In this document: positions 1,022 to 17,400 of the stretch, piece by piece | How positions within the stretch are numbered: the first letter of the stretch is position 1 | How the letters are laid out: every line of letters begins with the position of its first letter | Source: an uncultured archaeon | Lineage (GTDB): Archaea; Asgardarchaeota; Heimdallarchaeia; Heimdallarchaeales; Heimdallarchaeaceae | Reading direction: 5' to 3' | Length of the DNA: 17,611 bases | Assembly: GCA_964534625.1 (NCBI GenBank) | Contig: CAZHRF010000052.1 | Coordinates: 1 to 17,611 of the forward strand | The notes under the pieces: model-generated | Database searches by the model: none | Seen by the model: the letters and a program-made list of their open reading frames with translations, nothing else | Told to the model about the DNA's origin: nothing | Program-made: the position numbers and the translations under genes

Positions 1022-2782
1022 ATGGGAGTAGTATCTGAAGAGCTGAAATGGACATGGCAATATCTCTGGAGGTATCCTCTTATGAGCTCAATTACTATTA
1101 TTTTTAGCGTTATTGAAATTGTTCTTTTTAGTATGCCATCTTTATATATTGCAAAAATAGTGGATCTTTTTCTTACTAATTCTCCAACAAGTGAAGTTTT
1201 AATCTGGTTAGGGTATATGCTTGGTACTAGTATATTACAAAGCGGAGTGTTTTATTTGGTAGCTTCTATCAATGAAATTTTGGCTCATAGAGTGACTACA
1301 GATATGACAGCTGACCTGTTTACTTCATTACAAGAACGCCCCTTATATTATCACGACCAAGTCAGAATAGGCGATGTTATGGCAAGGGCAACGGGAGACA
1401 CCAGAACCATTAATATAGGCTTAAGCCCTGCCTTTAGAATCCTGTGGCAAATTTTTGCTGCATTTATTTTTATTGCTAGTGTTTTAATACATATAAACTG
1501 GAAACTCACTATGATTTTAATCATAGCAGCCCCAATCTTTTTATTTACCGTTTATCGTTATGGAATAAGACTTGAACCTTTGAATAAGCAAGTCCAAGAT
1601 CGTTTTGGTGATTTAAGCATTTACACAGCTGAAAGTATAGCTGGAATTAGAGAACTTAAATCGTATACTTCGGAAGATCTGGTTAATGAAAAATTCAGCA
1701 ATGTATCAAAACATCATGCTTCTGCTATTAAAAAAGAAGCTTCATCAGCTGCCATATATATTCCAGGAATTATTATGGCGGTAACCTTAGCTCTAACGAC
1801 CTTATTTGGTGTCTATTTAATTCTTCAAGGCGAATTAACAATTTCAGGATTAGTAGCATTTACTGGGTTATTATCCATGCTTTTATTCATCGCCCGTAGA
1901 ATAGGGTGGGTAGCTCAATTTGCAGCAAGAACCAATGCTGCAGCGAGAAGATTACGAAATATGCTTTTTGTTGACATACAACCAATTGAAGAAGGAACAA
2001 AAATCTTTACTGGGAAAGACACCACTATAGAATTTAATGACGTATGGTTTTCCTACATGAATAATGGCGTATGGGCACTTAAAGGAGTTAATTTAACAAT
2101 TAATCACGGAGAAACAATAGCCATTGTGGGCGGACCAGGAGCAGGGAAAAGCACAATTAATAAAATGATTTTACATCTCTATGAACCTAATAAGGGAGAA
2201 GTAAGAATAGGGGGCGAAGCATTACACAATTATAATAACGATTCAGTAAGAAAGAGAATTTCTTCAATCGAGCAAGATATTTTTCTCTTTTCCGAGTCTA
2301 TTCGCAAAAACATTGCTTTTGGTAATCCATCCATAAGTGATGAAGAAATCACCAAGGCGGCTAAGATTGCAAAAGCTCATGAATTTATAATAGAAACAGA
2401 AAACGGATATGATACACAAATAGGCGAGCGAGGTGTGCGCTTATCAGGAGGTCAAAAACAACGTATAGCTATTGCTCGAGCTCTAATTATGGACCCTGCC
2501 ATTTTAATTATGGATGATGCAAGTAGTGCACTTGATGCTGAAACAGAAATGAAAATTCAAGAAGCGATTAGTGGTGTACTAAAAACACGAACATCTATTA
2601 TAACTACTCATCGCCTTTCTATTATTGCGGAAGCAGATAGAGTGTTACTCCTTGAGAAAGGGAGGGTAATAGCTGATGGACCTCATGAACGATTGATCAA
2701 AACTGAACCCGAATACAGAAAATTGTTTGAAGGGCATTACCATTTACCTCCAATGGAACCAATCCAGAAGGTGAAAAAATGA
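1022..2782 (+). CDS. ABC exporter, fused TMD-NBD half transporter (MdlA/TM287-like subunit)
   Basis: About six hydrophobic helices, then Walker A GGPGAGKST, signature LSGGQKQR, Walker B ILIMDD (catalytic Glu replaced by Asp), D-loop SALD and H-switch THR. Confidence 0.95.
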   Translation: MGVVSEELKWTWQYLWRYPLMSSITIIFSVIEIVLFSMPSLYIAKIVDLFLTNSPTSEVLIWLGYMLGTSILQSGVFYLVASINEILAHRVTTDMTADLFTSLQERPLYYHDQVRIGDVMARATGDTRTINIGLSPAFRILWQIFAAFIFIASVLIHINWKLTMILIIAAPIFLFTVYRYGIRLEPLNKQVQDRFGDLSIYTAESIAGIRELKSYTSEDLVNEKFSNVSKHHASAIKKEASSAAIYIPGIIMAVTLALTTLFGVYLILQGELTISGLVAFTGLLSMLLFIARRIGWVAQFAARTNAAARRLRNMLFVDIQPIEEGTKIFTGKDTTIEFNDVWFSYMNNGVWALKGVNLTINHGETIAIVGGPGAGKSTINKMILHLYEPNKGEVRIGGEALHNYNNDSVRKRISSIEQDIFLFSESIRKNIAFGNPSISDEEITKAAKIAKAHEFIIETENGYDTQIGERGVRLSGGQKQRIAIARALIMDPAILIMDDASSALDAETEMKIQEAISGVLKTRTSIITTHRLSIIAEADRVLLLEKGRVIADGPHERLIKTEPEYRKLFEGHYHLPPMEPIQKVKK

Positions 2783-4584
2783 ACAAAAAAGAAGAAAAGA
2801 TAGCTCTCATGGGTGAAGAAAGATTATGGAACCAATTGTGGCTATGGTTAAAACCTGATCTACCGCTGTTATTGGTTCTTGCTTTTGTAATTATTATTAA
2901 CTTATCCTTGTCAATAACAGGTCCAATTTATCTAAAACAAGCTATAGAGTTGATTGATCAAAATAAAGATAATTTTGGCTCTATTGAAAGACAAGCTCTT
3001 ATCTTTGCCGGGATATTTGCATTGGCCCTGGTTTTATCCTTTTTAACAACAATTATTCAAGATTTGCTTGTAGCAAAGGTTAATCCTAGATTCATTAATC
3101 GCTTACGACAAGATGCCTTTAGAAAGATTATCAATAACAAAATAAGTTTTTTTGACAAAGCTGAAGCTGGGCGTATAACAAGCAGAGTAATAAATGATTC
3201 TAATGAACTCCTTGATTCAGCTCGCCGATTTGCGGATGCGTTTTCTCAACTCATTGTTTTAATTGGTGTTCTTGTTGTAATGTTCATCTACAGTCCCATA
3301 ATAACTTTGGGAGCACTAAGTATCGCTCCTATTTTGTTTATTACAGTTGTTGCCATGCGTAAATGGAGAAGAAGAATAGCCAAAAAATGGCGAAGTAAAA
3401 TCTCTAGTGTAAATTCAAGATTTGCAGAAGTGATGGGGGCAATTGAAATTAGTAAAGCGTTCGGCAGGGAAGATGAAAACTATAATGAATTCCATGAATT
3501 AAACGAAGAAACCTATCAAGCAGCTAAGATTCGTGGTTTAGCTATCTTTTCTGTTTCTCCAATTCAAGATTTCTTGCGTAATTTGGGTATCATTGTCATG
3601 CTATATGTGGCAGCTCTACGTGTTGATGTTATTGGTATTTCAGTAGTCTATCTGTTTATTGTTCTGCAAAGATATTTGTATGACCCTATAACGGCTATAG
3701 CGCGGAGCTATAATAGATTTCAATCTTCGTTTGCTGCTATGGAACGTATTTTGGAGATCATGGCTGATAAAGAAACAAGTGAATTTACCAAAGGAAATAT
3801 AATCGCATCTGATCTTAAAGGTGAAATAGTTTTTGACAATCTCACGTTTGCTTATGAAAATGAAGAGTACGTTCTTAAAGATATTAATTTCAAAACTAAT
3901 CCAGGTGAAGTTACGGCCATTGTAGGTCATACAGGAGCGGGTAAAACTACTGTTGTTGCTCTTCTTAGCCGTTTTTATGATTATCAAGAAGGGAAGGGGA
4001 AAATATACATTGACGGAAAAGAAATTACAGAATATGATTTGAAAAGTTTAAGACGAAGTATTGGCTATGTAGCCCAAGATGTTTTACTATTTAGCGGTAC
4101 AATTCGGGAGAACTTACAGATAGCAAAAAAAGATGCAACAGATGAGGAACTTTGGTCAACTTTAGAACAAGTTCAAGCAAAAGAGTTCATAGAAACTTTA
4201 CCTGAAGGATTAGACACAGAGATTCAAGAAGGCGGGAAGAACCTATCAAAAGGTCAAAAACAGATGTTATCTTTAGCACGAGCCTTACTTTCTGATCCCA
4301 AAATCCTTGTATTAGACGAGTTTACTGCGTCTTTAGATATGTATACAGAGGCTAAAATCCAAGATGCTATTCAAAAACTACTTGAAAAAAGGACAAGTAT
4401 TGTAATTGCCCATAGACTAACAACTATTCTAAAGGCGGATAATATCATAGTGCTAGAAAATGGTAGGTTAATAGAAAAAGGTACGCACTCTGAATTGCTA
4501 TCTAAAGAGGGTAGCTATGCAAAAATCTACAAAAAATACTTTTCTTTCCAATTGGTAGGCTTAACGCCTATTAGTAAAACATGA
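2779..4584 (+). CDS. ABC exporter, fused TMD-NBD half transporter (MdlB/TM288-like subunit)
   Basis: TM domain plus Walker A GHTGAGKTT, variant signature LSKGQKQM, canonical Walker B LVLDE and H-switch AHR. ATGA overlap (2779-2782) with the upstream gene. Confidence 0.95.
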   Translation: MNKKEEKIALMGEERLWNQLWLWLKPDLPLLLVLAFVIIINLSLSITGPIYLKQAIELIDQNKDNFGSIERQALIFAGIFALALVLSFLTTIIQDLLVAKVNPRFINRLRQDAFRKIINNKISFFDKAEAGRITSRVINDSNELLDSARRFADAFSQLIVLIGVLVVMFIYSPIITLGALSIAPILFITVVAMRKWRRRIAKKWRSKISSVNSRFAEVMGAIEISKAFGREDENYNEFHELNEETYQAAKIRGLAIFSVSPIQDFLRNLGIIVMLYVAALRVDVIGISVVYLFIVLQRYLYDPITAIARSYNRFQSSFAAMERILEIMADKETSEFTKGNIIASDLKGEIVFDNLTFAYENEEYVLKDINFKTNPGEVTAIVGHTGAGKTTVVALLSRFYDYQEGKGKIYIDGKEITEYDLKSLRRSIGYVAQDVLLFSGTIRENLQIAKKDATDEELWSTLEQVQAKEFIETLPEGLDTEIQEGGKNLSKGQKQMLSLARALLSDPKILVLDEFTASLDMYTEAKIQDAIQKLLEKRTSIVIAHRLTTILKADNIIVLENGRLIEKGTHSELLSKEGSYAKIYKKYFSFQLVGLTPISKT

Positions 4585-4634
4585 AAGAGGGTAAACTTAC
4601 ATGTTTCCAATAGTGAGGAGGAATTTAGAGATAC

Positions 4635-4982
4635 TCAGCAAGTAAGATGGAAAGCTCCAAAAACTCCTTCTTTTTTTTCTACTAGATCATTATAAGTTTT
4701 AACTGCTTCAGTTGTGTTTTTGACTATTACTTCAATATTTTTTGTACGGAGTTCTTCTATAAGCTGCTCAGGTACTTTCATTCTATTATTTGCCCCTGTA
4801 CCTATAACTAATATTTCAGGATCATGCCTAAAAACAAAATCCAAATCTTCCATGTGAAGTTTGTGGCCCTCTTCACGCCACCAATTGGGCTTAATTTCTG
4901 TTTTGCTTATTATAACATCCTTGGAATAGTGCTGTCCATTTATTTTTATGGTACCAAAAGAATAATCTTCGACAATATACAT
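4635..4982 (-). CDS. Mth938-like domain protein (DUF498/AAMDC family)
   Basis: YSFGTIKINGQHYSKDVII, PEILVIGTG, TTEAVKTYN and C-terminal AFHLTC are family-typical. ATG at 4982 is preferred over TTG at 4994. Confidence 0.88.
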   Translation of the reverse strand: MYIVEDYSFGTIKINGQHYSKDVIISKTEIKPNWWREEGHKLHMEDLDFVFRHDPEILVIGTGANNRMKVPEQLIEELRTKNIEVIVKNTTEAVKTYNDLVEKKEGVFGAFHLTC

Positions 4983-5176
4983 TTTTAATCTCAAGTATAC
5001 AAGCAGCTGTTGTATTCTTAATTTTTGGGATTAATCGCCCTTTAAACCTTGATTTAAACATTTCTTCACTAAATCTATTTCTTCCCTTGAAATTCGTAAT
5101 AGAATTGTATCCATTAACGATTGTTAAATAATATCAGCAGTATAATAACTGATACTTATTCTTGAATTTGACATTC

Positions 5177-6403
5177 TTAGATTGGTCTACTTTTGTCATA
5201 CTTTCTATACTCAAGATTCTCATCTAAATGAATACAAATCTCTCTTACTGAGTCAACACAATTATGAGTAGGAAAAATATCAACTGTGAGTGATCCGAAT
5301 CCTTTGGATATCATAATTCCCCGCTCAAACAATTTTTCGTTTTGAAAACCCACATCCAACATTGAATCGCGAAGAATTCGCCCACATATATCACATTTGT
5401 AACTAATTTCTTTTTCTAATTGAACATGTTCAAATTGCTTTAAACCTTGATTTTGAATGAATCTCACCAAAGAATCTTTTATTTTCATTTTTGCTTCATG
5501 AAGGATGTCTTCTGCTTTGAAAACATTTGAAACTTTAGTGGCTATTTCTTCAAATTGATCATTTTGGATACTTAAATCTCGTTCTTTACCAAATCCAATA
5601 ATGGTCACAAGATTATTACCTATATCTTTCATAAAAGAAATACTGTTATCAAAAACAAAGGCTGCATGATCTAAATTATATGTTGAATCAAATACCTTAC
5701 TCAAATCACTCCTTAATTTATCGTAATTTAAGCCACTTCTTTCAACTGGTTGGCTGTAAAGAATCAAACCTTGAGTTGTTGCAATAGCTAATGTTTTTAA
5801 GTTGTAATTTTGCCATATCTCTTTGATACTAATTTCTTTATCAGTATCTCTTGGATATGCATAAGAGATTACATTTTGTAAGGCATCAAAAAGCGTATCT
5901 TCAAATATTGATGTACCAAAAATTTCTACGTCATCGTGATTATGTGTTTCAAAAATGCCATCTATTGATTCTATAATTTCCTCTCTCTTTGTTATTGGAA
6001 CTGTATCCATTTTATGCACAAAAACGAATATTTTAGCATCATTACTATATTTTCTTACATAATCAATACTTAGATCAAAATAATACTTAGATCGCATTAT
6101 ATTTGAGGCATCAGATACATCAACTACAAAGATAACAGCTTTAGTATTGCTAAAGGTTCTTTCTTGTAATTCAGAAAAAACCTCATTTATATAATTAGAC
6201 TGTCCTCCAATATCATGAATATTAATTGAACTTCCTGCAACTTCAAAGAGTTTTCTGTTTACTCTCACTGTAGCAGGATTGAGTTTGGTTGATTTAGGTG
6301 CTACACCTTCAAAAGCAACTTGTTTAATAGACGTTTTACCAGATTCTGCCAATCCCAAAAATATTATTTTCGCTTGATTAATATCCCTTTTACCACCGAT
6401 CAT
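5177..6403 (-). CDS. Rag/Gtr1-like small GTPase with roadblock-like domain and C-terminal putative Zn-binding domain
   Basis: G1 GLAESGKTS, G2 PATVRV, G3 DIGGQ, G4 HKMD (His-type, as in RagA/Gtr1), G5 region TSIFEDTL. Roadblock-like LAIATTQGLILYS at ~aa 200. C-terminal CDIC...HNC. Confidence 0.85.
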   Translation of the reverse strand: MIGGKRDINQAKIIFLGLAESGKTSIKQVAFEGVAPKSTKLNPATVRVNRKLFEVAGSSINIHDIGGQSNYINEVFSELQERTFSNTKAVIFVVDVSDASNIMRSKYYFDLSIDYVRKYSNDAKIFVFVHKMDTVPITKREEIIESIDGIFETHNHDDVEIFGTSIFEDTLFDALQNVISYAYPRDTDKEISIKEIWQNYNLKTLAIATTQGLILYSQPVERSGLNYDKLRSDLSKVFDSTYNLDHAAFVFDNSISFMKDIGNNLVTIIGFGKERDLSIQNDQFEEIATKVSNVFKAEDILHEAKMKIKDSLVRFIQNQGLKQFEHVQLEKEISYKCDICGRILRDSMLDVGFQNEKLFERGIMISKGFGSLTVDIFPTHNCVDSVREICIHLDENLEYRKYDKSRPI

Positions 6404-6431
6404 TTTCTCACATTTTATTAAAAATATTTTT

Positions 6432-6449
6432 CCTTTAAGACTTTTCTGC
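6432..6449 (-). promoter_or_regulatory. Possible BRE/TATA promoter of the first Rag-like GTPase
   Basis: The minus strand reads GCAGAAAAGTCTTAAAGG, ~30 nt upstream of ATG 6403. The AT-rich background weakens the call. Confidence 0.35.
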
Positions 6450-6535
6450 TGATTATTCTAAGAAAAAAAACCACAAAAAGCGTTTTACACAAAACTATTG
6501 TCAAATTTCAGATGATCTCTAAAAAAATTGTGAAT

Positions 6536-9500
6536 TTACTCCTTATTTCTTATTTCCATTTCCTCTATTTGTGCAGCCAATATAAGTTGAGTGGCCTTCT
6601 GCCGTATCACACTAATTTTACTATTAATTTCAGCTAAAGACTTTTTCTCTTGTAACATCTTACTTAATTCATCTATATCTTGATGCAGATATTTTTCCTT
6701 ACCAATAAGTAAAGTGCCATGTTGTTCTTCTGTAACCACAATAAGAGAAAGATTCTCATAACCTCCCCTAGCAGCCTTATTCCTTAATTGAAGTCCGTGA
6801 ATATATCCGATCATATCTTCATTTGGTAAACGAATAGAGCCAGTTCTACGTTTTTCGTCAAATTCTTCAAAACCTAGACTACTATATGCTTGATCACATA
6901 TCTTCAATAAGAAATTATCAACACCTATAGCCATTCGACGGGCAAATTGATCCGATTCAAAAGAGTAATCACCTAAAAGTGGTGTTGGACCTTTTCTCTG
7001 ATCAAATATCGAGAGAATAACACCAGGAATTAACTGGACAATATTTTGTTTAATATCCTCTTCTGTTATTTCTTCAAGTATTTCTTCAAAAGATTTCGGA
7101 CGAGTAACTTTGTAAACTATAAAAGATATAATAATCATTAACAAAACACTTCCTGCAACGATTATTACAATTATTTCTGGAGGTATTCCTCCTTCGGATG
7201 GAACAGCTAAAACAGGTTCTTCCAATAAGAATGACACTACATCCAAAATATCGTTTCCTTTAAAATCAGCTGTTATTAGTAAATATGCTATTGTGTCGTT
7301 AATATCAAAATCTAATGTGGCTATACCTTGGGCATTAGTTTGTGTAATTCTTTCTAGCATTTCATCAAAACCCTCTGGAGTTGCAGCAACTGCTTGAGTA
7401 TATTCATTAAGATAAATATACAAGTAAAAATGAATATCAACAAAAGGAACAGGATCACCGTTATGATCTGTTAAATTTGCATAAACAACTAATTTATTAC
7501 CATATTCAACCGTAGTATTGGAAACATAAACGGAAAGAAAAACCGGTATAGGCTGGATTTCAACATTCATTGAAGCTATATTTTTTACTTCATCAAAATA
7601 GAATGATGATTCAATATATAGGTTGAGTGTGTAATTCCCTTTCTTTCTTGGGTATCCACTATATCTTATTAGTATAGTATTATTATCACCAAATTCTGTA
7701 TTTTCAATAACTGAAGTGCCATTAACAAATACCGCTGTTATCTCTTGAGAACTTATATTTTCAGTATCATATAATGAAACATTGATGAATATGTCTTCAC
7801 CATAAATTATATGATTTGAAATACTGTTTATATGTGCAATACCTTCTGTTCTATCAACTAAAACATCAATTTGAACAGTTTCTTTATGATCTTCAAATTG
7901 CCAAAACTGAATTTCAATTGGAGTTGGTTCACCATTTGTGATATTTGTAGCTGTAATGATAAATTCATATGTTATACTATCTAATTGTGTTGTATCTATA
8001 TCCAAATTGATTTCTTCATCTATTATATAGGTATATTTCAGACCGGTAATAGCTGTTCCTTCTTCTATGTCAGAAACACTAACAATAAAACTATATTCGT
8101 CACCATATTTCATAGAAATTGATGTGTTCTCAGGATAATTATCGGGAACAGAAATATAGTCAATCTTTAAATCATCAACGATGAAAAAATAAGTAACAGT
8201 ATAAGTGTTTGATGAAGTACTCTCCCCCGTATCATCTTGCAGTTTAATAGAAAGGATTTGTTCACCATCAAGTGATGGAATATCGATATAATTAGAACTA
8301 TTTAATAACTGTAGAATGCCATTATTCCATGAATATTCAAAACTCTCCAAATCATCATTAATACTGTCATTATACCAAAGAACGTAGTACCCTCTAATGT
8401 ATGAACCATTTGTAGCTGGAAAGTATTCGGATGTTTTAGTATCATAGAAATGTAATTCTAAGGTAGGAGCAGACAAATCAACAGTAAAAATATAACTGAA
8501 AATATGAGTATTTCCTACGATATCTTTTGTCGTAAATGATAGAGTTACAGGTCCCTCTTCATTGTAGAAGGCAGACAATTTTATTACTACAAAGCCATTG
8601 TCATCCAATATTGCATCTATGCTACCAGATAGATAACTCCAAGTATATTTAACTGACTCTATTGTTTCTCTTGATAAATCTTCTACTTGAAAATTCAGAT
8701 TAGTATAGTGATTTATCTTAGATTCATTAAATGGAAAAATAATAGATGTTTCAGGAGCTACACTATCGATTATTAAAGAAATATTGTATATTACTTCATT
8801 ACCCAATGTGTCATTGGCTTGAATGCTCAGTATCCCAAATCCATCCTCATAATCCAAAAAAAAACTGCTATTAAATGTTGTGTACTGAGAATTATCCCAT
8901 GAATAAGTACTATTTGCATTAGGATCATTATCAACAATATTAATATCAACTAGTGCACCATTTGGGATATAAAAATCATCATCTAGTTCAACTAAACCGT
9001 CAATAGAATTAATTGAAATTATTGGTGGAAACGTATCGATGGTAAAGTAAATGACTATTAGTCTAACATTACTAGCTTTATCAAATGCATAAAGGGTTAA
9101 ATTGTAATCTCCATCCTCTAGTCCCAAAAGATAAAAATCAAACGGTGATGAAAGAGTTTGATTTGATGAACCATCAATAGAAACGTAAACTAGTAGATCT
9201 GATTCTATAGTTAAATTGTCCGTAATTTGAAAACTGAAAATTTTTGTGTCCAAATGTCGGGAATTATTATATTCTCCACCTGGAATTATGACTGGTATTT
9301 CTTGATCTAAAGTGAATTTGAAAACAAATACATGTTCATTATTAGAAAGGTCTCCAACATAAATATAAAGATAGTGAATACAACTCGGATCTAGTGGAAG
9401 TGCATTGTTATCAGTTAAAACTAAAATGCTATTTGACATTAACGCAAAACCATCTTCAATTTCTCCATTATCCCATTGAAACTTTATTGTACCATTATAT

Positions 9501-11254
9501 CCTGTGATTGTTACATTAACATCATTCCCACCATAATAAAAGGAATCATTTTTCATCGTTGTTAACTCAACCAACAGTTCGCTTTTATCAACAAAGAACC
9601 TAAAAACAGTAATATTTTCTTGCATGAATTCATCAATAGCTTTTACAGTTAGATTATTCCATCCATCAATGTCTGGCGTATATTCAAAATAGGATGAAGT
9701 CCCTTCTTCTGCAGTCCAAGTGCGATAATTTTGATTGTCCCACTTATATTGCACAGAATATATCTCTGCTTCATCAGTAATTTCAACCTCTATAAGTTTA
9801 TTAGCTGAACATGTTGTCCCATTCAAAAGATTAACTAGCTTAATTGATGGAGCTTTCGGATCTAGGAAAAATATATAGAATTGCTCTTCATAAACAAAAG
9901 TATCATCAATATAGATAGTTAAATTACACTCTCCTTCTTCTAATGGTGCATAAATATTATGTTCTGGAACACTAAGTAAATCGAAAATAGTCCCATTATT
10001 ATTCCACTGATAAGTTACATTTGATGCTCCAGTAGAAACAGAAAAATTCAGTATTCCACCGCTTTTTATCATAGAATTATTCAATGGTTCTAGTAATACT
10101 ACGTCACTGTGAGATCCATCATAACCTATCTTATAGATATTTACTCTTCCATTATTAAACTCATCAAATGCTTTTACTTCTAGATAGTGCCAACCATCTG
10201 TCTTAGGTAAGGATGTGGTGGTTTCTGACCCCTCCCATGAGGTAAATTCATTATCATTCCATCTATATGATTGAGAGGTTGAATCTTGTATAGTGATATT
10301 TATATTCTTCTCTTCATAGTAATAAGTTTCATTTTCAGCTCCTGTGATAGAAATAGAAGGATAAGAAAGATCTTTGTATTTGATCTGCATACCAAAAACT
10401 GTACTGTAATAATCAAAATCGTAGGTATTAGTATAACCTTCGTCTGTTATCTGCCATTGATATGGACCTCTATCACTTGAATAGTTTATTTTAAGTTCAA
10501 CACTTGTAGAATCATCAGTAAGTAGAGAAACTTTTCCCATAACAGCTAGTTTCAACCTATAATTTTTAGGAATAATAACTGGATCCGATAGAATTAAAGT
10601 GAATACTTTTTTATTATTGAAAGAAAGATCATCGGGTAAAATTTCTTCAACATAAGCTATCTGAGTGGTATTTTGATCTGATGGATTGAATAATGACAAA
10701 CTAATATTGAGCGTATAAACTTGTTGATCATCTATGTCAGTATTAAAATGTGTTAAAACATGTATTTTTCCGGCTATTTCTGTATCTTCACTAAATACAG
10801 GTGTAAACATTGATGATCTTTTTCGCGTATTAGGTTCTTCAAGATAATAATAAGTATTGGTAGAACTAGGCCAACCAGTCTGCCCACCATCCATTTTATA
10901 TCTTTTATATGTTGAAGAACTTCCTTTATCATACATATCCTCGTAATTGTTAAACTCATAGACGCTTCCATCTTCATCTACATTGACAAAACTGTTATGA
11001 GCGAAAAAACCTTGTAACAAATAATCACCAGGGATAACCGTTTTTTTGATACCAGAAGAGATGAGCGTTTCTTCTTTTGTTTCATTTTTCTTGAGTTTGT
11101 CTTTGTAATTATCTTTGTAATCTATAATTTGCGTTCTATTCCTTTCCAATTTCTCTTCTAACTGATTTTCATACCTATAATCTTGATAAAAAAAATTTCC
11201 AGTAATAAGAATAATAATAATGAAACTGTTAATAATAATTTTACTGTTTTCCAT
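6536..11254 (-). CDS. Large cell-surface membrane protein: Ig-like repeats, transmembrane helix and cytoplasmic folliculin/uDENN-like longin domain
   Basis: N-terminal hydrophobic stretch (IIINSFIIIILITGNFFY), repeated beta-rich units with many N-x-S/T sequons, TM IIVIIVAGSVLLMIIISFIVY followed by basic KVTRPK, then LSIFDQRKGP and LRNKAARGGYENLSLIVV. Start set at ATG 11254 (upstream GGGGAT, avoids overlap with the upstream gene); 11290 and 11338 are alternatives. Confidence 0.85.
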   Translation of the reverse strand: MENSKIIINSFIIIILITGNFFYQDYRYENQLEEKLERNRTQIIDYKDNYKDKLKKNETKEETLISSGIKKTVIPGDYLLQGFFAHNSFVNVDEDGSVYEFNNYEDMYDKGSSSTYKRYKMDGGQTGWPSSTNTYYYLEEPNTRKRSSMFTPVFSEDTEIAGKIHVLTHFNTDIDDQQVYTLNISLSLFNPSDQNTTQIAYVEEILPDDLSFNNKKVFTLILSDPVIIPKNYRLKLAVMGKVSLLTDDSTSVELKINYSSDRGPYQWQITDEGYTNTYDFDYYSTVFGMQIKYKDLSYPSISITGAENETYYYEEKNINITIQDSTSQSYRWNDNEFTSWEGSETTTSLPKTDGWHYLEVKAFDEFNNGRVNIYKIGYDGSHSDVVLLEPLNNSMIKSGGILNFSVSTGASNVTYQWNNNGTIFDLLSVPEHNIYAPLEEGECNLTIYIDDTFVYEEQFYIFFLDPKAPSIKLVNLLNGTTCSANKLIEVEITDEAEIYSVQYKWDNQNYRTWTAEEGTSSYFEYTPDIDGWNNLTVKAIDEFMQENITVFRFFVDKSELLVELTTMKNDSFYYGGNDVNVTITGYNGTIKFQWDNGEIEDGFALMSNSILVLTDNNALPLDPSCIHYLYIYVGDLSNNEHVFVFKFTLDQEIPVIIPGGEYNNSRHLDTKIFSFQITDNLTIESDLLVYVSIDGSSNQTLSSPFDFYLLGLEDGDYNLTLYAFDKASNVRLIVIYFTIDTFPPIISINSIDGLVELDDDFYIPNGALVDINIVDNDPNANSTYSWDNSQYTTFNSSFFLDYEDGFGILSIQANDTLGNEVIYNISLIIDSVAPETSIIFPFNESKINHYTNLNFQVEDLSRETIESVKYTWSYLSGSIDAILDDNGFVVIKLSAFYNEEGPVTLSFTTKDIVGNTHIFSYIFTVDLSAPTLELHFYDTKTSEYFPATNGSYIRGYYVLWYNDSINDDLESFEYSWNNGILQLLNSSNYIDIPSLDGEQILSIKLQDDTGESTSSNTYTVTYFFIVDDLKIDYISVPDNYPENTSISMKYGDEYSFIVSVSDIEEGTAITGLKYTYIIDEEINLDIDTTQLDSITYEFIITATNITNGEPTPIEIQFWQFEDHKETVQIDVLVDRTEGIAHINSISNHIIYGEDIFINVSLYDTENISSQEITAVFVNGTSVIENTEFGDNNTILIRYSGYPRKKGNYTLNLYIESSFYFDEVKNIASMNVEIQPIPVFLSVYVSNTTVEYGNKLVVYANLTDHNGDPVPFVDIHFYLYIYLNEYTQAVAATPEGFDEMLERITQTNAQGIATLDFDINDTIAYLLITADFKGNDILDVVSFLLEEPVLAVPSEGGIPPEIIVIIVAGSVLLMIIISFIVYKVTRPKSFEEILEEITEEDIKQNIVQLIPGVILSIFDQRKGPTPLLGDYSFESDQFARRMAIGVDNFLLKICDQAYSSLGFEEFDEKRRTGSIRLPNEDMIGYIHGLQLRNKAARGGYENLSLIVVTEEQHGTLLIGKEKYLHQDIDELSKMLQEKKSLAEINSKISVIRQKATQLILAAQIEEMEIRNKE
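8170..10365 (-). repeat. About eight degenerate protein-level tandem Ig-like repeats (~85-100 aa each)
   Basis: Recurring pattern D-x-x-(A/P)-P-x-I...Y-x-W-(D/N)...(D/E)-G-x-x-x-L-x-(V/I)-x-A-x-D-x-x-(G/N)-N...F-x-(V/I)-D. Examples: DGWHYLEVKAFDEFNN, DGWNNLTVKAIDEF, DGDYNLTLYAFDKASN, DGFGILSIQANDTLGN, EGPVTLSFTTKDIVGN, DGEQILSIKLQD. Boundaries are approximate. Confidence 0.75.
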
Positions 11255-11279
11255 CTTGATCCCCAATAACCATACTATC

Positions 11280-12044
11280 TTATTTTTCATTTTCTGCCAT
11301 ATATTTGTGTAATTTAAACGATTTGAGAAAAATATCATTTATAGCTTCTTTTAATTCTTGAACTCCGTTTCCCGTTATATTTGATATTTCAACGGTTTTT
11401 ATATCTTCTAAATCAAATCTAAATCCAATCTTATCTTCGATATGATCTTGAACGAAATATCTTGCTTTTTGTATTTGACTAAATTCGACTTCAATAGCTT
11501 CTTCTCGCTCTAGATGAGTGCCTAGAATAATTATACCCGTATATTCTTGTATTAATTCTCGTTCAATAGCTCGATCTAACCAATATTCTAACTCTTGAAA
11601 TGTTTTCATATCTGTTGTATTATAAGTAAGAACAAGTGCCAAAATCGCATCCATTTTCGATACATCAAAAAATAAATCACAAGCATCTTCAAAAGCTAGC
11701 CCCTCGCCTTTCCCACCTTTCCCTTTTTGACCTGGCATGACAAAAATCTGCGAACTAATAACGATTTGATATTTCTCAATATTAGAATGAAAAACAAAAT
11801 AATTAAATTCGATATTAATAGATTTTTTTAATGAAAGGATAGTTTGCCTTGAAAATTTTACTCCTTGAATATGAGTCAGATTAAGTGCTGTATGGGTTTT
11901 ACCAGTTTGCCCATCACCAATAAAAACTACTCCCCCTGTACAAACCACATTTCTTTCTCTAAAAAGCACTAAATGTGAAATTGGCGCTTCAATATTCATT
12001 TTAATGATAGATGATTTGCCATTACCTTCGGGATTATTTTTCAT
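11280..12044 (-). CDS. Atypical Ras-superfamily small GTPase
   Basis: G1 GDGQTGKT, G3-equivalent VMPGQ (no Asp), TFQELEYWL helix, G4-equivalent GTHLE, G5 EISNITGNGVQEL. Confidence 0.8.
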   Translation of the reverse strand: MKNNPEGNGKSSIIKMNIEAPISHLVLFRERNVVCTGGVVFIGDGQTGKTHTALNLTHIQGVKFSRQTILSLKKSINIEFNYFVFHSNIEKYQIVISSQIFVMPGQKGKGGKGEGLAFEDACDLFFDVSKMDAILALVLTYNTTDMKTFQELEYWLDRAIERELIQEYTGIIILGTHLEREEAIEVEFSQIQKARYFVQDHIEDKIGFRFDLEDIKTVEISNITGNGVQELKEAINDIFLKSFKLHKYMAENEK

Positions 12045-12067
12045 ACTAATTTAAAATATGTGTTTAA

Positions 12068-12086
12068 ATGATTATAAGCGTTTAGT
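12068..12086 (-). promoter_or_regulatory. Archaeal BRE/TATA promoter for the atypical GTPase and receptor unit (probably leaderless)
   Basis: The minus strand reads AAACGCTTATAA; the TATA element ends ~28 nt before ATG 12044. Confidence 0.55.
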
Positions 12087-12284
12087 TTGGGAGAAAGAGA
12101 AATACTGAATATTCATCTATTAAAACCCAACAGCCATAAATAGATTTTAAGTATAATTTAGGCCATAACCACTTTCTTCTAGAGTAACGTGATCTTTAAC
12201 TGTGCTTTATACAGACGTTTTTTCACCAGTTTTACTTCCTATGAAAGAAAATAATAAATTTATACAATAAACCATTGCAGTTAT

Positions 12285-12340
12285 GTGAATACCTTTATAT
12301 TTGGACGAGAATTTATAGAAAATACAAAATAAGTGGTGAT
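12285..12340 (+). promoter_or_regulatory. Possible TATA box and Shine-Dalgarno site of the second Rag-like GTPase
   Basis: GTGAATACCTTTATATT at 12285-12301 and GGTGAT at 12335-12340 before ATG 12344. Confidence 0.45.
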
Positions 12341-12343
12341 GTC

Positions 12344-13834
12344 ATGTCTTATTTATATGACGAAATATATGAAAGAGATGGAAATGATAAATCATCAGAA
12401 GGTAAGAATAAAATAATAATCATGGGTTTACAAGCAGCTGGAAAAACAGCCATAAAGGAGCTTATATTTTTAGGTAAATCTCAAGAAGAAGTCGAAAATT
12501 ACATGGCCACCACACATTATACCAGACATTTTTTAGATGAAAGTAAACAAAATGTGATAATAGATTCTGGCGGTCAAGAATCTTATTTTAATGAAGCTGT
12601 AACCTATTACCGTAATCTAATCTTTTCTGATGCTAAATTATTAGTATGGGTTGTTGATATATCAAGTCCAGATTTATTTGAAGAATCAGAGAGACGATTT
12701 AGTTTTACCATTCGTCAGTTTAAGAAAAAGAATCCAGATGGGATAATATATGTATTTTGTCATAAAAGTGACCTTGTTGAAACAGAAAAAATCGCTTCTA
12801 TTGTCCAATATTTGAAAGGTTCATTACATGATCCCAAATTTGAGATTAACTTTAGAATAACATCCATTTATGATAAATTAGAATTAAATGAAACATGTAA
12901 AGAAATGTTAGTAGCTGCCAACATTCGTACAGATAACTTAGAATTAGTAACCAATGTTGAAGGAGATGAGGAAGTTTCACAGGATCAAATAAGTTTCATT
13001 GCAGAAACAGATTCTAATCAAAAAATCCAATTATTGAGTAAATTCATGGCAAAAAAACCCAGATCTCAACTTCCTACCTTTGGTAAACTTGAAGTTGATG
13101 TAGATTTAGAGGGGCGAGATATAATTGAGATTGTATTACTTGACAAAGAAAACTTTTCACCATCTCTTGGAGCTTCATCGCATAGACTAGCGGATAAAGG
13201 TAATTCAATGGATTATCTTTTAGCACTTAACTATTTCAAAAAAACTCTAAAAGAAAAGGGCAAAGATATTCCGGTGTACGAAAGCATTATAGATTCTTAT
13301 AACTCTCAAATTTGGGCATGTATCTACAATATAAAACATTACTATTTACTCATAACTTCTTTCTCTGAAATAACACAAACAAGAGGTAAAGAATTCGAAG
13401 ATTTAATCAAAGGCTTTGCAGAGATTATTAAAAAAAAGGAACAGAAAGTTTCTAAGGAAGATTTTGAGGTTAAAGAAGTAGCTAAACCAATTACAGAACC
13501 AACCAGAGAGATAAGCCAAGGACAAGATGTGAACCAATTTTTAACTCAAGAAAATATACAAGAAACACAATCAAAAGAAGAGAATATAAATGGGGAACAA
13601 TTAAAAGAAATAGAAAGAAACGCAGATGTAGAGGTTCTAAAAGCAAAATATAGAAAGTTATTAGAAGAAAGTAAAAAAAGAGAAGAGCAACAACGAACTC
13701 AATTAAAAGACGAAATACAAAGTGATAAAAAACAAGAAAAAGATTCTTTGATTACTTTCTCTTCAACTGAAATGAAACATTTGGTAAATTTCTTCATAAA
13801 AAATAAAAAGAGAGCAGAAGATGAAGAAAAATAG
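12344..13834 (+). CDS. Second Rag/Gtr-like GTPase with putative roadblock/longin-like domain and charged C-terminal tail
   Basis: G1 GLQAAGKTA, G2 YMATTHY, G3 DSGGQ, G4 HKSD, G5 region TSIYD. Start at ATG 12344, preceded by SD-like GGTGAT (12335-12340), rather than TTG 12275. Confidence 0.82.
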   Translation: MSYLYDEIYERDGNDKSSEGKNKIIIMGLQAAGKTAIKELIFLGKSQEEVENYMATTHYTRHFLDESKQNVIIDSGGQESYFNEAVTYYRNLIFSDAKLLVWVVDISSPDLFEESERRFSFTIRQFKKKNPDGIIYVFCHKSDLVETEKIASIVQYLKGSLHDPKFEINFRITSIYDKLELNETCKEMLVAANIRTDNLELVTNVEGDEEVSQDQISFIAETDSNQKIQLLSKFMAKKPRSQLPTFGKLEVDVDLEGRDIIEIVLLDKENFSPSLGASSHRLADKGNSMDYLLALNYFKKTLKEKGKDIPVYESIIDSYNSQIWACIYNIKHYYLLITSFSEITQTRGKEFEDLIKGFAEIIKKKEQKVSKEDFEVKEVAKPITEPTREISQGQDVNQFLTQENIQETQSKEENINGEQLKEIERNADVEVLKAKYRKLLEESKKREEQQRTQLKDEIQSDKKQEKDSLITFSSTEMKHLVNFFIKNKKRAEDEEK

Positions 13835-14220
13835 AGAAAAATAAATGTTAAACGCAAGATAGGAACTTTTACAAAAATCCATCTCCATTACTATGTAGAA
13901 ACATAGAATGAAGAGAGTATTACTAAAATCCAATAAAGTATCGCTATTCATATTTATTTAGTGTATTCTGTATCTATCATGATCTATAGCTAATTCTTAA
14001 AATGCTGCAAATACAGAACCAATTATAACAATAATAAGATTAGAAACAATATGATTAATTTGTTTAAATTCTAGAACCAGTTTTAAAATGCCCCATTATA
14101 CATTTTTTGGGTTTTCTGCCTTTGAGTTTTTACGACATAATTTGTGCCTTAGATATGGTTTTATAAATATAGTTTTTTGGGTTTAAATAATAGTACAATA
14201 TCTTTACACAATATTTATCA

Positions 14221-14763
14221 ATGAACAAAACCTCTAAAAATTGTATGCCAAAAGAGAAAATTGCTAAAATAATTATAGCGGGGGATGGGGCAGTAGGTAA
14301 GACTTCTATTGTCAATAGCATAATTGACAGCGATATCGAATGTAAAGATGTTAAAATGACACCTGGCATCAATATTGAAACAGCAAGATATGAACTCAAG
14401 AAAGATAAAGAAGTGGTTAACTTAACTTTTTGGGATCTAGGAGGACAAAAACAGTTTCGTTTTTTTCAGGAAGATTTTACAAAACAAACAGATATCGTAC
14501 TTTTGGTATATGACCTGTCACGGTATAAATCCTTTATAAATATTGAAAAAGAATGGGCACAAATGTTCAATTCTGGTAATAATATGCTCACGAAAAGAAT
14601 TTTAGTTGGGAACAAAGATGATCTCAAGAATAGTATAAAAGATCAAGAAATAGAAGAAATGGCTGAAAAGTTAAATGTACCGCATATTAAAGTGTCAGCT
14701 CTCGAGAACAGAAACATAGAGAAACTTTTGGAACTAATAGGATCTTATTTAGAATGTGAATAA
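14221..14763 (+). CDS. Rab/Roc-like single-domain small GTPase
   Basis: G1 GDGAVGKTS, G2 MTPGINI, G3 WDLGGQKQFR, G4 GNKDD, G5 VSA. The start could be 14245. Confidence 0.92.
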   Translation: MNKTSKNCMPKEKIAKIIIAGDGAVGKTSIVNSIIDSDIECKDVKMTPGINIETARYELKKDKEVVNLTFWDLGGQKQFRFFQEDFTKQTDIVLLVYDLSRYKSFINIEKEWAQMFNSGNNMLTKRILVGNKDDLKNSIKDQEIEEMAEKLNVPHIKVSALENRNIEKLLELIGSYLECE

Positions 14764-14901
14764 AGACAAATAATATTGCCCAACTCTATTGTCAATATCA
14801 TAAAGAAAGAAGTAATGCTAGACATACTTTTCTTTATATTTTCTCTATAAAGCACTTTTTTTTCCAATACTTGTTTATTTATAAAGTTTATTATGCCTTG
14901 T

Positions 14902-14918
14902 GCAAAAAAGTTTTAAAT
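14902..14918 (+). promoter_or_regulatory. Archaeal BRE/TATA promoter for the Zn-finger, V4R and GGR unit
   Basis: GCAAAAAAGTTTTAAAT ends ~28 nt before ATG 14946. Confidence 0.5.
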
Positions 14919-14945
14919 TGTGTTATATAATTTTTCTTGAGTTTA

Positions 14946-15407
14946 ATGAACCAGACTAAAAGTGAATATGATTTATTAATAAGCTGTCCAGTATGCAATG
15001 AGGGCGTTATGATATCTGTTGAAGATGTGAGTAGTATACGCGATGCCAAACGATATCCAGTATCGTTAACCAATGTACATGGAGATCCAAAACATGCTAT
15101 CACTTTATTTATTGATCAAGACATGAGAGTTAGAGCTGTTGAACCCTCCGACATAATTTTCGAATTAGAAGAATTAAAAGCAAATAGAACGCTAAGAGAA
15201 CGGTATATTCCTTATCCTATTGAAGGACATGTTGACTTAGGGGGGCTATCACGAGAAGAAGTGGTTATCATTTCGCTTTCTGATGGCAATCGTGATATCA
15301 CAGAGATTTGTAAAGTTCTAACTCTGAGCAAACTGAAAGGTAAGATGTTTGCTGAAAAATTAGTTCGTGACAAGAAATTAGCTAAAGTAGAGAAAAAAAT
15401 AATCTAA
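14946..15407 (+). CDS. Putative zinc-finger (CxxC...H...H) plus winged-HTH protein
   Basis: CPVC...HGDPKH...FIDQDMRVRAVE at the N-terminus. C-terminal LSREEVVIISLSDGNRDITEICKVLTLS...KLVRDKKL matches a 'DGxR' wHTH pattern. ATG 14946 lies ~28 nt after a TATA-like box. Confidence 0.65.
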   Translation: MNQTKSEYDLLISCPVCNEGVMISVEDVSSIRDAKRYPVSLTNVHGDPKHAITLFIDQDMRVRAVEPSDIIFELEELKANRTLRERYIPYPIEGHVDLGGLSREEVVIISLSDGNRDITEICKVLTLSKLKGKMFAEKLVRDKKLAKVEKKII

Positions 15408-15428
15408 AAATTGCAAATGGTGAAATAA

Positions 15429-16094
15429 ATGAATAATAATGAAGAGCCAAAAATGAAAAAAATCAATATATTTAGGCGATTTAAAAATAAGATTATTGTA
15501 ACAGGGGCCAAAGCCAAAAAGAAATGGGCAACCGAAAAAGTTGCTTCTTTCACAGTTACAAAAATGAATGAAACGCTCGTTAAAGAACTCATTCAAGCTG
15601 TTGGAGAAAAAGAAGCAATGGAAAAGATTTTTCGTGCAGCAGCTAATTTGGGGCATGAATACATGTTAGAATTATCTTCATTACTTGAAGGACATATAGA
15701 CACTATGCCTGCTTATGCTCAAGCAGCATGGTTAATGTTTTCGGGACACAAACTAGAGGCAACAAATTATCAAGAGATCCAAATTGGGGAGTATACTTGT
15801 CCAGCATTAAAATTTGTAGATCCATCTTGTCCTTGGTGCAAAAATATTTCTTTTGAGTCGCCATTCTGTACATATCCCGCGGGGGCATATAATGGTGCAG
15901 GACAAACATGGGCAGAATTAACTGATGAACCATATAATTTCTTTGTGAGAGAGCTGAAATGTAAAGCACAGGGAGCCAAACATTGTGAGTTCCTCTTTCT
16001 TGCATGCCCTAAAGACATGTCAATTGATGTGTTAAAACAAGAAAAACCCGAATGGTTTGAGTACATAGACTATGGATTTTTCTCATTTGACTAA
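15429..16094 (+). CDS. V4R (4-vinyl reductase) domain protein
   Basis: CPWC, FCTYPAGAYNG and VRELKCKAQGAKHCEF match the V4R ExxCxAxGxxxCxF signature. The start may be a later ATG. Confidence 0.85.
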   Translation: MNNNEEPKMKKINIFRRFKNKIIVTGAKAKKKWATEKVASFTVTKMNETLVKELIQAVGEKEAMEKIFRAAANLGHEYMLELSSLLEGHIDTMPAYAQAAWLMFSGHKLEATNYQEIQIGEYTCPALKFVDPSCPWCKNISFESPFCTYPAGAYNGAGQTWAELTDEPYNFFVRELKCKAQGAKHCEFLFLACPKDMSIDVLKQEKPEWFEYIDYGFFSFD

Positions 16095-16125
16095 TGCATT
16101 TTTTTCATATAGAGGATGAATAATT

Positions 16126-17400
16126 ATGAATGACAGATTATCTAACGATGTATATGATGTTATAGTGGTCGGCGGTGGACCAGCTGGTTCATCAGGTGCC
16201 TATCATGCTGCCCAAAACGGATTAAAAACAATTTTGATTGAAAAAAAGAAATTGCCTAGAGACAAACCTTGTGGAGGGGCTCTATCAGAACGAGCTCTAG
16301 ATTATCTTGGGAAACAAGCGCTTGATTCGATCAATTGTAAGGTTAAACAATTAGCCTTATTTTCGCCCTCCTTAGATTCGTTTGTGTATCAAGGTGAACC
16401 AGGATATTTTATTGTACGGGAAGTATTTGATACAGCAATGGTTAGGGATGCTGAAGCGCAAGGAGCTGAGGTTGTTGAAGAAGCAAAAGTTGTAGACATA
16501 AGTACAAATGGCTCAAATAGGTACCAAGTTACAATTGAAAAGGGAGAAGAAAAAAAAACAATTGAATCAAAGTATGTATTTTTAGCTACAGGTGTTCAAA
16601 ATAATCCACTCATAAAAAAACTAGGGATCAGAAAGAGATGGCCAGAAGGGCACCTAGCCATGTGTGTAGTGTCAGAAACACCTGTTGAAAGCAATATCTT
16701 GGATTCCCATGAAATATATTCAGACACAACTTTAGCTATTTATTTTGGGATCGTGCCTAAAGGATATGGCTGGTACTTTGTAAAGGACGGATATATCAAC
16801 ATAGGCATAGGTGCAACATGGCTAGATATCAAAGATAAGGGAGCAAAAAATGTTTATAATGAGTTTGTACAACTATTAAAAAAACAGAAACATTTACCAG
16901 AGGATATTAAACTCACCAGATCAAAATCGCACACTCTTGTATTCAAGAAGACAGCAAAAACAATTATCAAAGACAACATCTTACTCTTAGGAGATGCAGC
17001 GGGGTTTGTTTCTCCTGTAAGTGGCGAAGGCATTTATTATAGTGTTAAATCAGGATATTTAGCAGCTAAAACAGTTAAAAAAATCCTTGATAATGGAGGA
17101 AAAATAGAACCTTATGAGAAGGAAATCTATAAAGATTTTGGCAAGGATCTAAATAGAAGCGGATTATTCCTTCAGAAAACGCTATATTCACATCAAAAGA
17201 CAATGGAACTCGCGGTTAAACTAGGTAAACATGACGATAAAATGGCTAAATTAATTACGAGAATGGTATATGGCATAACTAGCTATAGAACATTTGTCTG
17301 GAGAGCACTAATAAGAGCACCCATCTCCTTGATAAAATTACTTTTTAAGAGAGGAGAAAAGAAAAAGGGAAAGGGAAAGGGAAAGGAAAAAAAAGAATAA
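16126..17400 (+). CDS. Geranylgeranyl reductase family FAD-dependent oxidoreductase
   Basis: YDVIVVGGGPAG dinucleotide fold, RDKPCGGAL, REVFD, PKGYGWYF and LLGDAAGFVSPVSGEGIYYS. SD-like GAGGATGA upstream. Confidence 0.9.
   Translation: MNDRLSNDVYDVIVVGGGPAGSSGAYHAAQNGLKTILIEKKKLPRDKPCGGALSERALDYLGKQALDSINCKVKQLALFSPSLDSFVYQGEPGYFIVREVFDTAMVRDAEAQGAEVVEEAKVVDISTNGSNRYQVTIEKGEEKKTIESKYVFLATGVQNNPLIKKLGIRKRWPEGHLAMCVVSETPVESNILDSHEIYSDTTLAIYFGIVPKGYGWYFVKDGYINIGIGATWLDIKDKGAKNVYNEFVQLLKKQKHLPEDIKLTRSKSHTLVFKKTAKTIIKDNILLLGDAAGFVSPVSGEGIYYSVKSGYLAAKTVKKILDNGGKIEPYEKEIYKDFGKDLNRSGLFLQKTLYSHQKTMELAVKLGKHDDKMAKLITRMVYGITSYRTFVWRALIRAPISLIKLLFKRGEKKKGKGKGKEKKE

Follow-up and report, generated by a model that had tools for sequence, protein, structure and literature searches.

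A Heimdallarchaeia gene cluster that may link a surface protein with a folliculin-type longin tail to Rag-like GTPases

Seven signaling-like genes, g1 to g7, lie side by side on an archaeal contig, which raises the question of whether they belong to one circuit. The window, meaning the whole stretch of 17,611 nucleotides that was analyzed, comes from an uncultured member of the Heimdallarchaeaceae, and the first-pass annotation had read about 11 kb of it as a single signaling island with four small GTPases. All seven open reading frames were found within 5177-16094 in the ORF listing, and the count of GTPases was borne out: g1, g3, g4, and g5 fall within 10 kb and form the densest GTPase cluster of the genome (the runner-up has two), against a background of at most 71 GTPase-like ORFs. 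Most of the domain calls held as well, but the single unit did not, as the genes occupy both strands, with a divergence point between g3 and g4, and make up two neighboring, separately conserved modules rather than a single circuit. Module A (g3, g2, g1, and g4) spans 5177-13834, and module B consists of g5, g6, g7, and a geranylgeranyl-reductase-like gene.

Gene order was backed by one unitig over 744-15587 in each of four sequencing runs. These runs belong to one study and probably to the source sample, so they serve as an assembly check only; on this coverage, misassembly was ruled out for 744-15587. A 31-nt repeat at 15558-15588 inside g7 recurs on contig C48, and the alignment of g7 with an orthologue crosses it gap-free at 56% identity. 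GC content of the locus is 30.4%, compared to 32.3% for the genome (6th percentile), a nonsignificant deviation on which an island defined by composition was rejected. A promoter scan of the locus gave results at chance level, using a bacterial model that is unsuited to archaea.

Across Heimdallarchaeia, the complete order of module A, in which g3, g2, and g4 follow one another and g1 converges on g4, was found on one contig in 14 loci from two families. In 27 loci g4 lies directly after g2; g1 is convergent in 20 of these, and the remaining 7 end at contig edges. Wherever one contig carries both, g3 is directly upstream of g2. The module in the window is reordered relative to the other loci and still contiguous, while locus L048 has g3-g2 without Rag-like genes. 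The most tightly linked neighbor of g2 is g3 and not a Rag-like gene. Full-length g1 orthologues occur in 20 of the family's 30 genomes and, for a family of another order, in 8 of 12; the closed "Candidatus Heimdallarchaeum aukensis" is among the genomes with module A. None of the four genes was found in the closed genome G007, from which the module is lost as a whole, and genome G237 has three of them together, in fragments. As the module A loci are kin, they are not independent observations. In gene trees, sequences of the second family (f6, presumably of the order Gerdarchaeales, as its member JABLTI01 suggests) fall among or beside one genus of the first, and because of this placement the spread of the module in that family may reflect transfer. 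Module A is best read as an accessory unit for GTPase control that is conserved in Heimdallarchaeia.

The switches of this unit comprise two Rag-like GTPases and an atypical one. The last, g3 (11280-12044, minus strand), has a weak Ras match, an intact P-loop (GDGQTGKTH), a G3 motif without aspartate (xMPGQ), a G4 motif of THL[D/E], and best PDB matches that are weak and of Rab type. The G3 aspartate is likewise missing from MglA (xPGQ), and a THxD G4 is Roc-like; in contrast to the bacterial MglA-MglB pair of GTPase and roadblock GAP, however, no MglB gene adjoins g3. The g1 product (5177-6403, minus strand) matches Pfam Gtr1_RagA with 120.5 bits (cut-off 22; E 1e-34), has yeast Gtr1 as its best PDB match (E 5e-24), and carries the motifs GLAESGKTS (G1), DIGGQ (G3), HKMD (G4), and TSIF (G5). 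Its middle domain is putatively roadblock-like, and its C-terminus contains a CxxC...HxC putative zinc domain in which C337, C340, H380, and C382 are invariant in 19 orthologues. The g4 product (12344-13834, plus strand; longest ORF from 12275) reaches 82.7 bits against Gtr1_RagA (cut-off 22; E 3e-23) with the motifs GLQAAGKTA, DSGGQ, HKSD, and TSIY, and has, besides an insert and a long charged tail, a putative domain of roadblock/longin fold. Its model (mean pLDDT 64) aligns across both domains with LokiRagO (8yl2), Gtr2 (8fw5_E), and RagC (6nzd_G), and the C-terminal domain of this model matches MglC (7cy1, Z 8.2) and synbindin (Z about 8). HKxD and TSI[W/F/Y] motifs are conserved among orthologues of g1 and g4. 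With scores above the curated cut-off and these motifs, the G domains of g1 and g4 assign both to the Rag/Gtr GTPases; by sequence matches, both are closest to Gtr1/RagA, and the pair may or may not comprise one RagA-type and one RagC-type protein.

Between these genes lies g2 (6536-11338, minus strand), a single-pass surface protein with an ORF of 1,600 amino acids and a likely start at 11254 that would give 1,572. A signal-like N-terminus is followed by a variable N-terminal domain, an Ig-like stalk with weak bacterial-Ig matches in Pfam, a transmembrane helix (7118-7174, minus strand; residues 1389-1407 of the 1,600-aa ORF; hydropathy peak 3.19), and a cytoplasmic longin tail. The extracellular part contains 41 N-glycosylation sequons (NxS/T). 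Median identity to homologues rises from 28% in the N-terminal domain to 35% in the stalk and 54% in the tail. An Atlas search with the N-terminal domain returned only scores below 0.9, and no ligand-binding family was found for it. Receptors of this type have many paralogues and tandem copies, and in family f5 they number up to 11 paralogues per genome and reach about 10,000 amino acids.

The longin tail (6539-7051, minus strand) has a predicted uDENN-type longin fold (AF2, pLDDT 95.6) that is closest to the Asgard longin 8yqg (Z 13.7). SMCR8-C9orf72, Lst4, folliculin-complex, and GATOR1 chains are among its fold neighbors, including 7o2w, of SMCR8-C9orf72 type (Z 12.5, rmsd 3.4, 157 aligned), 4zy8, Lst4 (Z 12.2, rmsd 2.8, 130 aligned), and 6nzd_H (Z 11.3, rmsd 3.1, 141 aligned); TRAPP and adaptin longins score lower (Z ≤9.4), except AP5 at 10.5. 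A GP motif, G1450-P1451 (6986-6991), stands at the start of strand 2 (G in 95/95 and P in 88/95 homologues), and R1524 (6767-6769), a candidate arginine finger within the A-R-G-G loop that joins strands 4 and 5, is invariant in all 95. In the widened tail alignment, 22/30 members match Pfam Folliculin (best E 5e-6), and R1524 falls within the stretch where these relatives match. The window's own tail had no folliculin match by sequence in Pfam or PDB, and in a PDB search tail profiles retrieved no folliculin, their sole match being the Asgard longin 8yqg (E 8e-5). A single-sequence pattern scan of the genome's contigs with the tail found nothing, an alignment being required. A C-terminal module of DENN type is absent, as g2 ends 171 amino acids after the longin start and the model contains longin only. 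In this genome we found one strong longin copy and no clear noncatalytic longin partner for g2; a second candidate is a weak soluble match that keeps the ARG. Family f5 includes receptor paralogues without GP and Arg. Together, sequence and model suggest that the g2 tail is a folliculin (FLCN)-type longin with catalytic-type GP and Arg motifs, in which R1524 is the putative arginine finger.

Which GTPase such a tail would act on is addressed by three lines of evidence. Proteins from another Asgard class fuse a longin to a Rag G domain, and GP and ARG are kept in 18/18 of those fetched. Four paralogous receptor loci from three genomes adjoin a stand-alone Rag G-domain gene; most receptor paralogues, including those of family f5, have no adjacent Rag gene, and therefore gene proximity does not fix the partner of g2. 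Lastly, complex prediction for a g2 tail dimer with g1 (residues 6-300) and GTP/Mg gave an ipSAE of 0.60, compared to 0.02 for the best control, which passes a mark attained by 58 of 80 solved pairs and by 2 of 110 mismatched ones, with only 7/80 solved pairs, plus both mismatches, attaining it at 0.60 or under. Runs agreed in at least 94% of contacts, with a partner pLDDT of at least 85. The model thus weakly favors binding of the g2 longin to g1, and the pass may be a memory of FLCN-RagC or GATOR1-RagA.

Based on these data, the explanation that we hold to be probable, with considerable reserve, is that g2 is a membrane-anchored, folliculin-type GAP acting on co-encoded Rag-like GTPases, with module B standing apart. 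Specifically, g2 would hold its longin domain against the inner face of the membrane, where the longin, probably as a dimer, would bind a co-encoded Rag-like GTPase, for which g1 is the best candidate, at its G domain. R1524 would then be inserted to speed GTP hydrolysis, in the manner of FLCN R164 on RagC. The glycosylated, fast-evolving ectodomain could set the place or time of this step by sensing contact or a ligand, or by clustering. The roadblock-like domains of g1 and g4 probably mediate a pairing of the two in Rag fashion, and g3 would serve as a dedicated additional switch. In a further-reaching version, which we offer tentatively, a folliculin-type arginine finger would act on a Rag-like heterodimer under the control of a cue from outside the cell, such that the longin-GAP/Rag pairing that underlies nutrient sensing at lysosomes was at work on an archaeal surface before eukaryotes.

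Two other readings we regard as unlikely, each in its own right. The partner of the longin may instead be g3, or the tail may serve not as a GAP but as a platform for scaffolding or exchange, with the Rag-like pair downstream and possibly reading g3 via the g1 zinc domain. Consistent with this, every complete core locus has g3 immediately before g2, a position kept after rearrangement both here and in L048; two g3 paralogues, in G021 and G042, have a stand-alone homologue of the g1 zinc domain as their immediate upstream neighbor; and longins are mostly GEF or scaffold platforms (PMC12290439). The same source, however, gives GP plus Arg as the GAP-type signature, fusions and paralogue neighbors join the longin to G domains of Rag type and not of g3 type, and the tail passed, weakly, with g1. 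Alternatively, and in our estimate no more probably, the flow runs from inside out: g2 would be an adhesin or surface coat whose placement, export, or clustering is steered by the GTPases via the tail, which might be a GAP in the absence of outside sensing. The long glycosylated Ig stalk, the variable tip for which no ligand-binding family was found, and the many paralogues and tandem copies are adhesin-like, yet a GAP-type tail would act on a GTPase, matching a flow from receptor to switch, and the GAP step itself is common to this reading and the membrane-anchored GAP.

A single surface-to-cytoplasm circuit of all seven genes, with g5, g6, and g7 as an extra switch and effectors, fares far worse. 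The three genes lie next to module A here. Rab/Ras-like g5 (14221-14763, plus strand) matches Pfam Ras with 104.9 bits (E 4e-30). An Asgard protein with a CxxC...H N-terminus and a possible winged helix is encoded by g6 (14937-15407, plus strand), which has no Pfam match and an Atlas match of 0.97, with HTH_47 on 16% of its members. V4R-like g7 (15429-16094, plus strand; E 2e-5) had no match in a PDB sequence search, and the annotated link to V4R and TRAPP Bet3 hangs on a Pfam score of 25.1 bits, below the cut-off of 31. Module B ends with a geranylgeranyl-reductase-like FAD oxidoreductase (16126-17400, plus strand; Pfam FAD_binding_3 and GGR_cat), which lies outside the range that the first-pass annotation had considered. 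L170 has a complete module B but no module A, metabolic genes occupying the 9 kb upstream; a g5 orthologue precedes g6-g7-reductase there and in L171, and the L170 reductase orthologue holds the equivalent position at 53% identity. Homologues of g6 and g5 also adjoin in L170 and in genome G002, in which no module A was found. Two relatives of g7 were found, each near a geranylgeranyl-reductase-like gene, and g7 was found in 0/82 other genomes of the class. Orthologues of g5, g6, and g7 were not seen in the 39 loci with a g2-type longin, and about 190 kb separate the closest g5 homologue of H. aukensis from its module A. Although a CxxC...H motif is common to g6 and the g1 C-terminus, the two show no significant similarity (hhalign probability 1%). 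We conclude that module B is a separate operon, next door to module A in this genome, and that its separate conservation largely refutes the seven-gene circuit, which we consider very improbable.

What the first-pass annotation proposed thus survives in part. Its Rag/folliculin idea fits g1 to g4 (by linkage, GP and invariant Arg, an FLCN/SMCR8-like fold, fusions, and the weak complex pass) but not g5 to g7, and its domain calls stand for g1, g4, g5, the weakly Ras-like g3, and the g2 longin fold but only putatively for g6 and g7; synteny of all seven genes in related genomes and a complete circuit with effector were not upheld. That module A is merely a passively co-inherited or mobile block of functionally uncoupled genes has next to no credence with us: its patchy distribution, changing flanks, trees at odds with host orders, and slightly low GC would fit, but linkage outlives reordering, and fusions and independent paralogue pairings join the same two domain types.

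PMC12290439 describes such Asgard longins and asks which GTPases those with a GP motif and arginine finger act on, and genome layout seldom pairs Asgard GTPases with their regulators (PMC10933270). For this question module A offers small soluble parts, namely, the atypical GTPase, the Rag-like pair, and a tail of 171 amino acids. In it, a possible forerunner of the Rag switch becomes open to testing in archaea. If the membrane-anchored GAP is real, the folliculin/GATOR1-Rag link is older than eukaryotes, and the fusion of a GAP with a surface receptor is a design unseen in the eukaryotic complexes. No description of this receptor-Rag cluster was found in the literature searched, whose coverage left out most subscription journals.

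Among known systems, the g2 tail shares its longin fold with folliculin-FNIP (yeast Lst7-Lst4), GATOR1 NPRL2-NPRL3, and SMCR8-C9orf72 (8dhb, 6nzd, 7o2w, and 4zy8; PMC9473554 and PMC12290439), along with GP at the start of strand 2, the conserved Arg of the loop between strands 4 and 5, and an association with Rag-type GTPases, seen here from gene linkage. Unlike in those GAPs, the longin of g2 forms the cytoplasmic end of a single-pass surface glycoprotein that has neither a DENN module nor a clear noncatalytic partner in the genome. PMC12290439 and 10.1101/2020.10.19.343400 report Heimdallarchaeia proteins of the same domain class and motifs, as Asgard GP/arginine-finger longins and NPRL2-like/DENN proteins, respectively; neither source names a GTPase partner for the GP/Arg longins or, in the passages found, a membrane-anchored Ig form. 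The latter source describes a conserved operon of roadblock, Rab-like, and DENN genes, in which the GTPase is non-Rag, and Asgard archaea without TOR kinase. In Rag/Gtr heterodimers, the Rag-like gene pair of MK-D1 (PMC10933270), LokiRagO (8yl2), and LokiRagM (9m28), a roadblock-like domain comes after the G domain of Rag type (HKxD, TSI[FY]), an arrangement that g1 and g4 putatively share, and the MK-D1 pair likewise consists of two paralogues encoded side by side. Other Asgard Rag-like GTPases are monomeric or homotetrameric by their PDB titles (9m28, 8yl2). Compared to these known Rags, g1 adds a putative zinc domain, g4 carries an insert as well as a long tail, and both are nearest to Gtr1/RagA.

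All seven consecutive signalling-like genes that the first-pass annotation had joined into one island were present as open reading frames at 5177-16094, with g1, g2, and g3 on the minus strand and g4 to g7 on the plus strand; likely starts are 11254 for g2 and 12344 for g4. Among the four proposed GTPases, Pfam matched g1 and g4 to Gtr1_RagA far over the cut-off and g5 to Ras, and g3 gave a weak Ras match with its P-loop kept. The other domain assignments held less firmly: Ig matches of g2 were weak, the V4R match of g7 fell below threshold, and g6 had no Pfam match. A single Logan unitig spanned 744-15587 in each of four runs from one microbial-mat study, possibly the source sample of the assembly, which rules out a misjoin as the cause of the gene order. 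The cluster is the densest GTPase grouping in the host genome, a member of the Heimdallarchaeaceae whose genus has no other representative in the genome set. Repeated DNA of raised depth opens the contig (1-773; copies on C101, C82, and C38) upstream of two ABC exporter genes and is possibly a mobile-element remnant. Separately, 31 nt inside g7 (15558-15588) are identical to C48 19295-19325, in unrelated context.

Loci carrying the cytoplasmic g2 tail were fetched from Ca. Heimdallarchaeum aukensis and from Heimdallarchaeota MAGs. All four genes g1 to g4 (module A, 5177-13834) shared one contig in 14 of these 39 loci, and g4 directly followed g2 in 27, with g1 convergent in 20 and contig edges ending the remaining 7. 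Gene order in relatives is g3, g2, and g4 in one direction with g1 opposed; some loci contain a tandem pair of g2 copies, and flanking genes vary from genome to genome. Within the 39 loci, linkage is conserved for g1 to g4, and no orthologues of g5, g6, or g7 were seen there. In the window, module A is reshuffled (g4 diverges from g3, and g1 follows g2) yet contiguous. Full-length g1 orthologues occur in 20/30 genomes of the host family and, with the same gene order, in 8/12 genomes of one family in another order; none of g1 to g4 was found in the closed genome (G007) of the H. aukensis genus, which belongs to the host's family. In gene trees, sequences of the second family fall among or beside those of one first-family genus, and those of the window and H. 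aukensis form long branches. Module A may therefore have moved between lineages. One genome (G237, L109:7206-10858) holds a decaying copy, in which g4 is intact and g1, g2, and g3 are fragments.

Rag-type motifs are intact in both g1 and g4, and Gtr1/RagA was the best match for each. The g4 model, of modest confidence, aligns with Rag structures across both domains, and a conserved CxxC...HxC domain closes the g1 C-terminus. Going by PDB titles, further Rag-like proteins of Asgard archaea are monomeric or homotetrameric. In g3 the G3 aspartate is missing and G4 reads THxD, so this protein probably handles nucleotides in an unusual way. Stand-alone homologues of the putative C-terminal zinc domain of g1 lie directly upstream of two g3-family paralogues in two genomes (L131:4004-6280, L137:4094-6227), a hint that GTPases of the g3 type may be bound by this domain.

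The receptor g2 has a single transmembrane helix (residues 1389-1407) preceded by 41 sequons. Its ectodomain is 28-35% identical to homologues and its tail 54%. The tail was modelled by AF2 as a longin fold (pLDDT 95.6), with the Asgard longin 8yqg as top structural match (Z 13.7), followed by C9orf72-SMCR8 (12.5), Lst4 (12.2), and a folliculin-complex chain (11.3); Foldseek ranked GATOR1 and active-FLCN chains right behind 8yqg. A profile search with the tail recovered 123 relatives; many are large proteins, reaching 5,809 aa, with the longin at their end. GAP-type longins are marked by a strand-2 GP motif and an arginine finger, both of which occur in Asgard longins (PMC12290439). In the tail, GP (G1450-P1451) starts strand 2, and A-R-G-G lies between strands 4 and 5. 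Across 95 aligned sequences, F1445, G1450, P1453, R1524, and R1579 never vary, and 88 of the sequences retain P1451. By position and conservation, we infer that R1524 is equivalent to FLCN R164, the catalytic finger for RagC (PMC9473554). The host also encodes a 409-aa soluble protein (C28:32084-33313, minus strand) with a weak longin-profile match and the ARGG motif kept.

Whether Asgard longins partner Arf-related or Rag GTPases had been left open (PMC12290439). In another class of the phylum, tail-type longins are fused to Rag-like G domains in soluble proteins of 460-500 aa (L122:9451-10860, L123:10113-11555, L150-L167), and GP and the ARG motif are kept in 18/18 fetched fusions, which are possibly self- or trans-acting GAP-GTPases. 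Longin-GTPase fusions as such were known (PMC10933270). Pfam Folliculin was matched by 22/30 members of a widened alignment (best E 5e-6). Stand-alone Rag G-domain genes also adjoin paralogous receptors at four loci of three genomes, and a Rag-like gene lies beside such a receptor in one genome of another class; most receptor paralogues have no Rag gene next to them. A model of two tails with GTP, Mg, and g1(6-300) scored 0.60, against 0.02 for the best control, with contact agreement of at least 94% and partner pLDDT of at least 85. The complex mark was reached by 58/80 solved and 2/110 mismatched pairs, of which 7 solved pairs and both mismatches scored at or below 0.60. The prediction gives weak support to longin-g1 pairing, and resemblance to solved FLCN-Rag complexes may account for the score.

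The most likely reading is that g2 tails would dimerise at the membrane and act as a GAP on a co-encoded Rag-like GTPase, the variable glycosylated ectodomain setting the place or time of action. One rival holds that the true partner is g3 or that the tail is a scaffold; the fusions and the weak g1 model point to a Rag-like partner, and the GP/Arg signature to a GAP. Alternatively, g2 may be an adhesin controlled from inside. That the module A genes lack functional coupling is improbable.

A surface-to-cytoplasm circuit of all seven genes, as originally envisaged, is largely refuted, because no g5 to g7 orthologues were seen in the 39 g2-tail loci and this set occurs at another locus in the same order without the Rag cluster. 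Within the host family, g6 was found in only 1/30 genomes, and a search of 82 other genomes from the class gave no g7. Two g7 relatives exist in the database, and the locus of one (L170:8951-11873) encodes a Rab-like GTPase, a g6 orthologue, a V4R-like protein, and a geranylgeranyl-reductase-like enzyme in an order identical to window 14221-17400; the 9 kb upstream carry metabolic genes and no Rag cluster. By gene content and order, g5 to g7 belong with the reductase gene in an operon of their own (module B), which may link the reduction of membrane lipids to a GTPase and a domain that binds small ligands. The first-pass observation is partly confirmed and its interpretation partly supported: the Rag/folliculin reading is backed for g1 to g4, through linkage, longin motifs, fusions, and the weak model, but not for g5 to g7.

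The single parts were known before: Asgard Rag-like GTPases, including one Rag gene pair (PMC10933270), GP/Arg longins (PMC12290439), and NPRL2-like and DENN proteins (10.1101/2020.10.19.343400). The literature searched, which lacks most subscription journals, yielded no account of a conserved cluster that joins two Rag-like GTPases to a GP/Arg longin anchored in the membrane. The window adds the rearranged but intact order, the two-module split, and the weak complex pass. Unlike folliculin, the tail lacks a DENN module, so its architecture is not that of a folliculin orthologue. In eukaryotes, RagC is contacted by the FLCN and FNIP2 longins alike (PMC9473554). In the receptor-carrying family f5, a tandem GP/Arg receptor pair is followed by a third gene of about 1,000 aa (L073:12619-15651, L074:6225-9176, L111:6376-9399, L112:8747-11728, L113:9374-12451, L114:6718-9606) whose longin retains neither GP nor ARG, both having been lost. 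This protein could be a partner subunit, an arrangement resembling the catalytic/non-catalytic longin pairs FLCN/FNIP and NPRL2/NPRL3 of eukaryotes.
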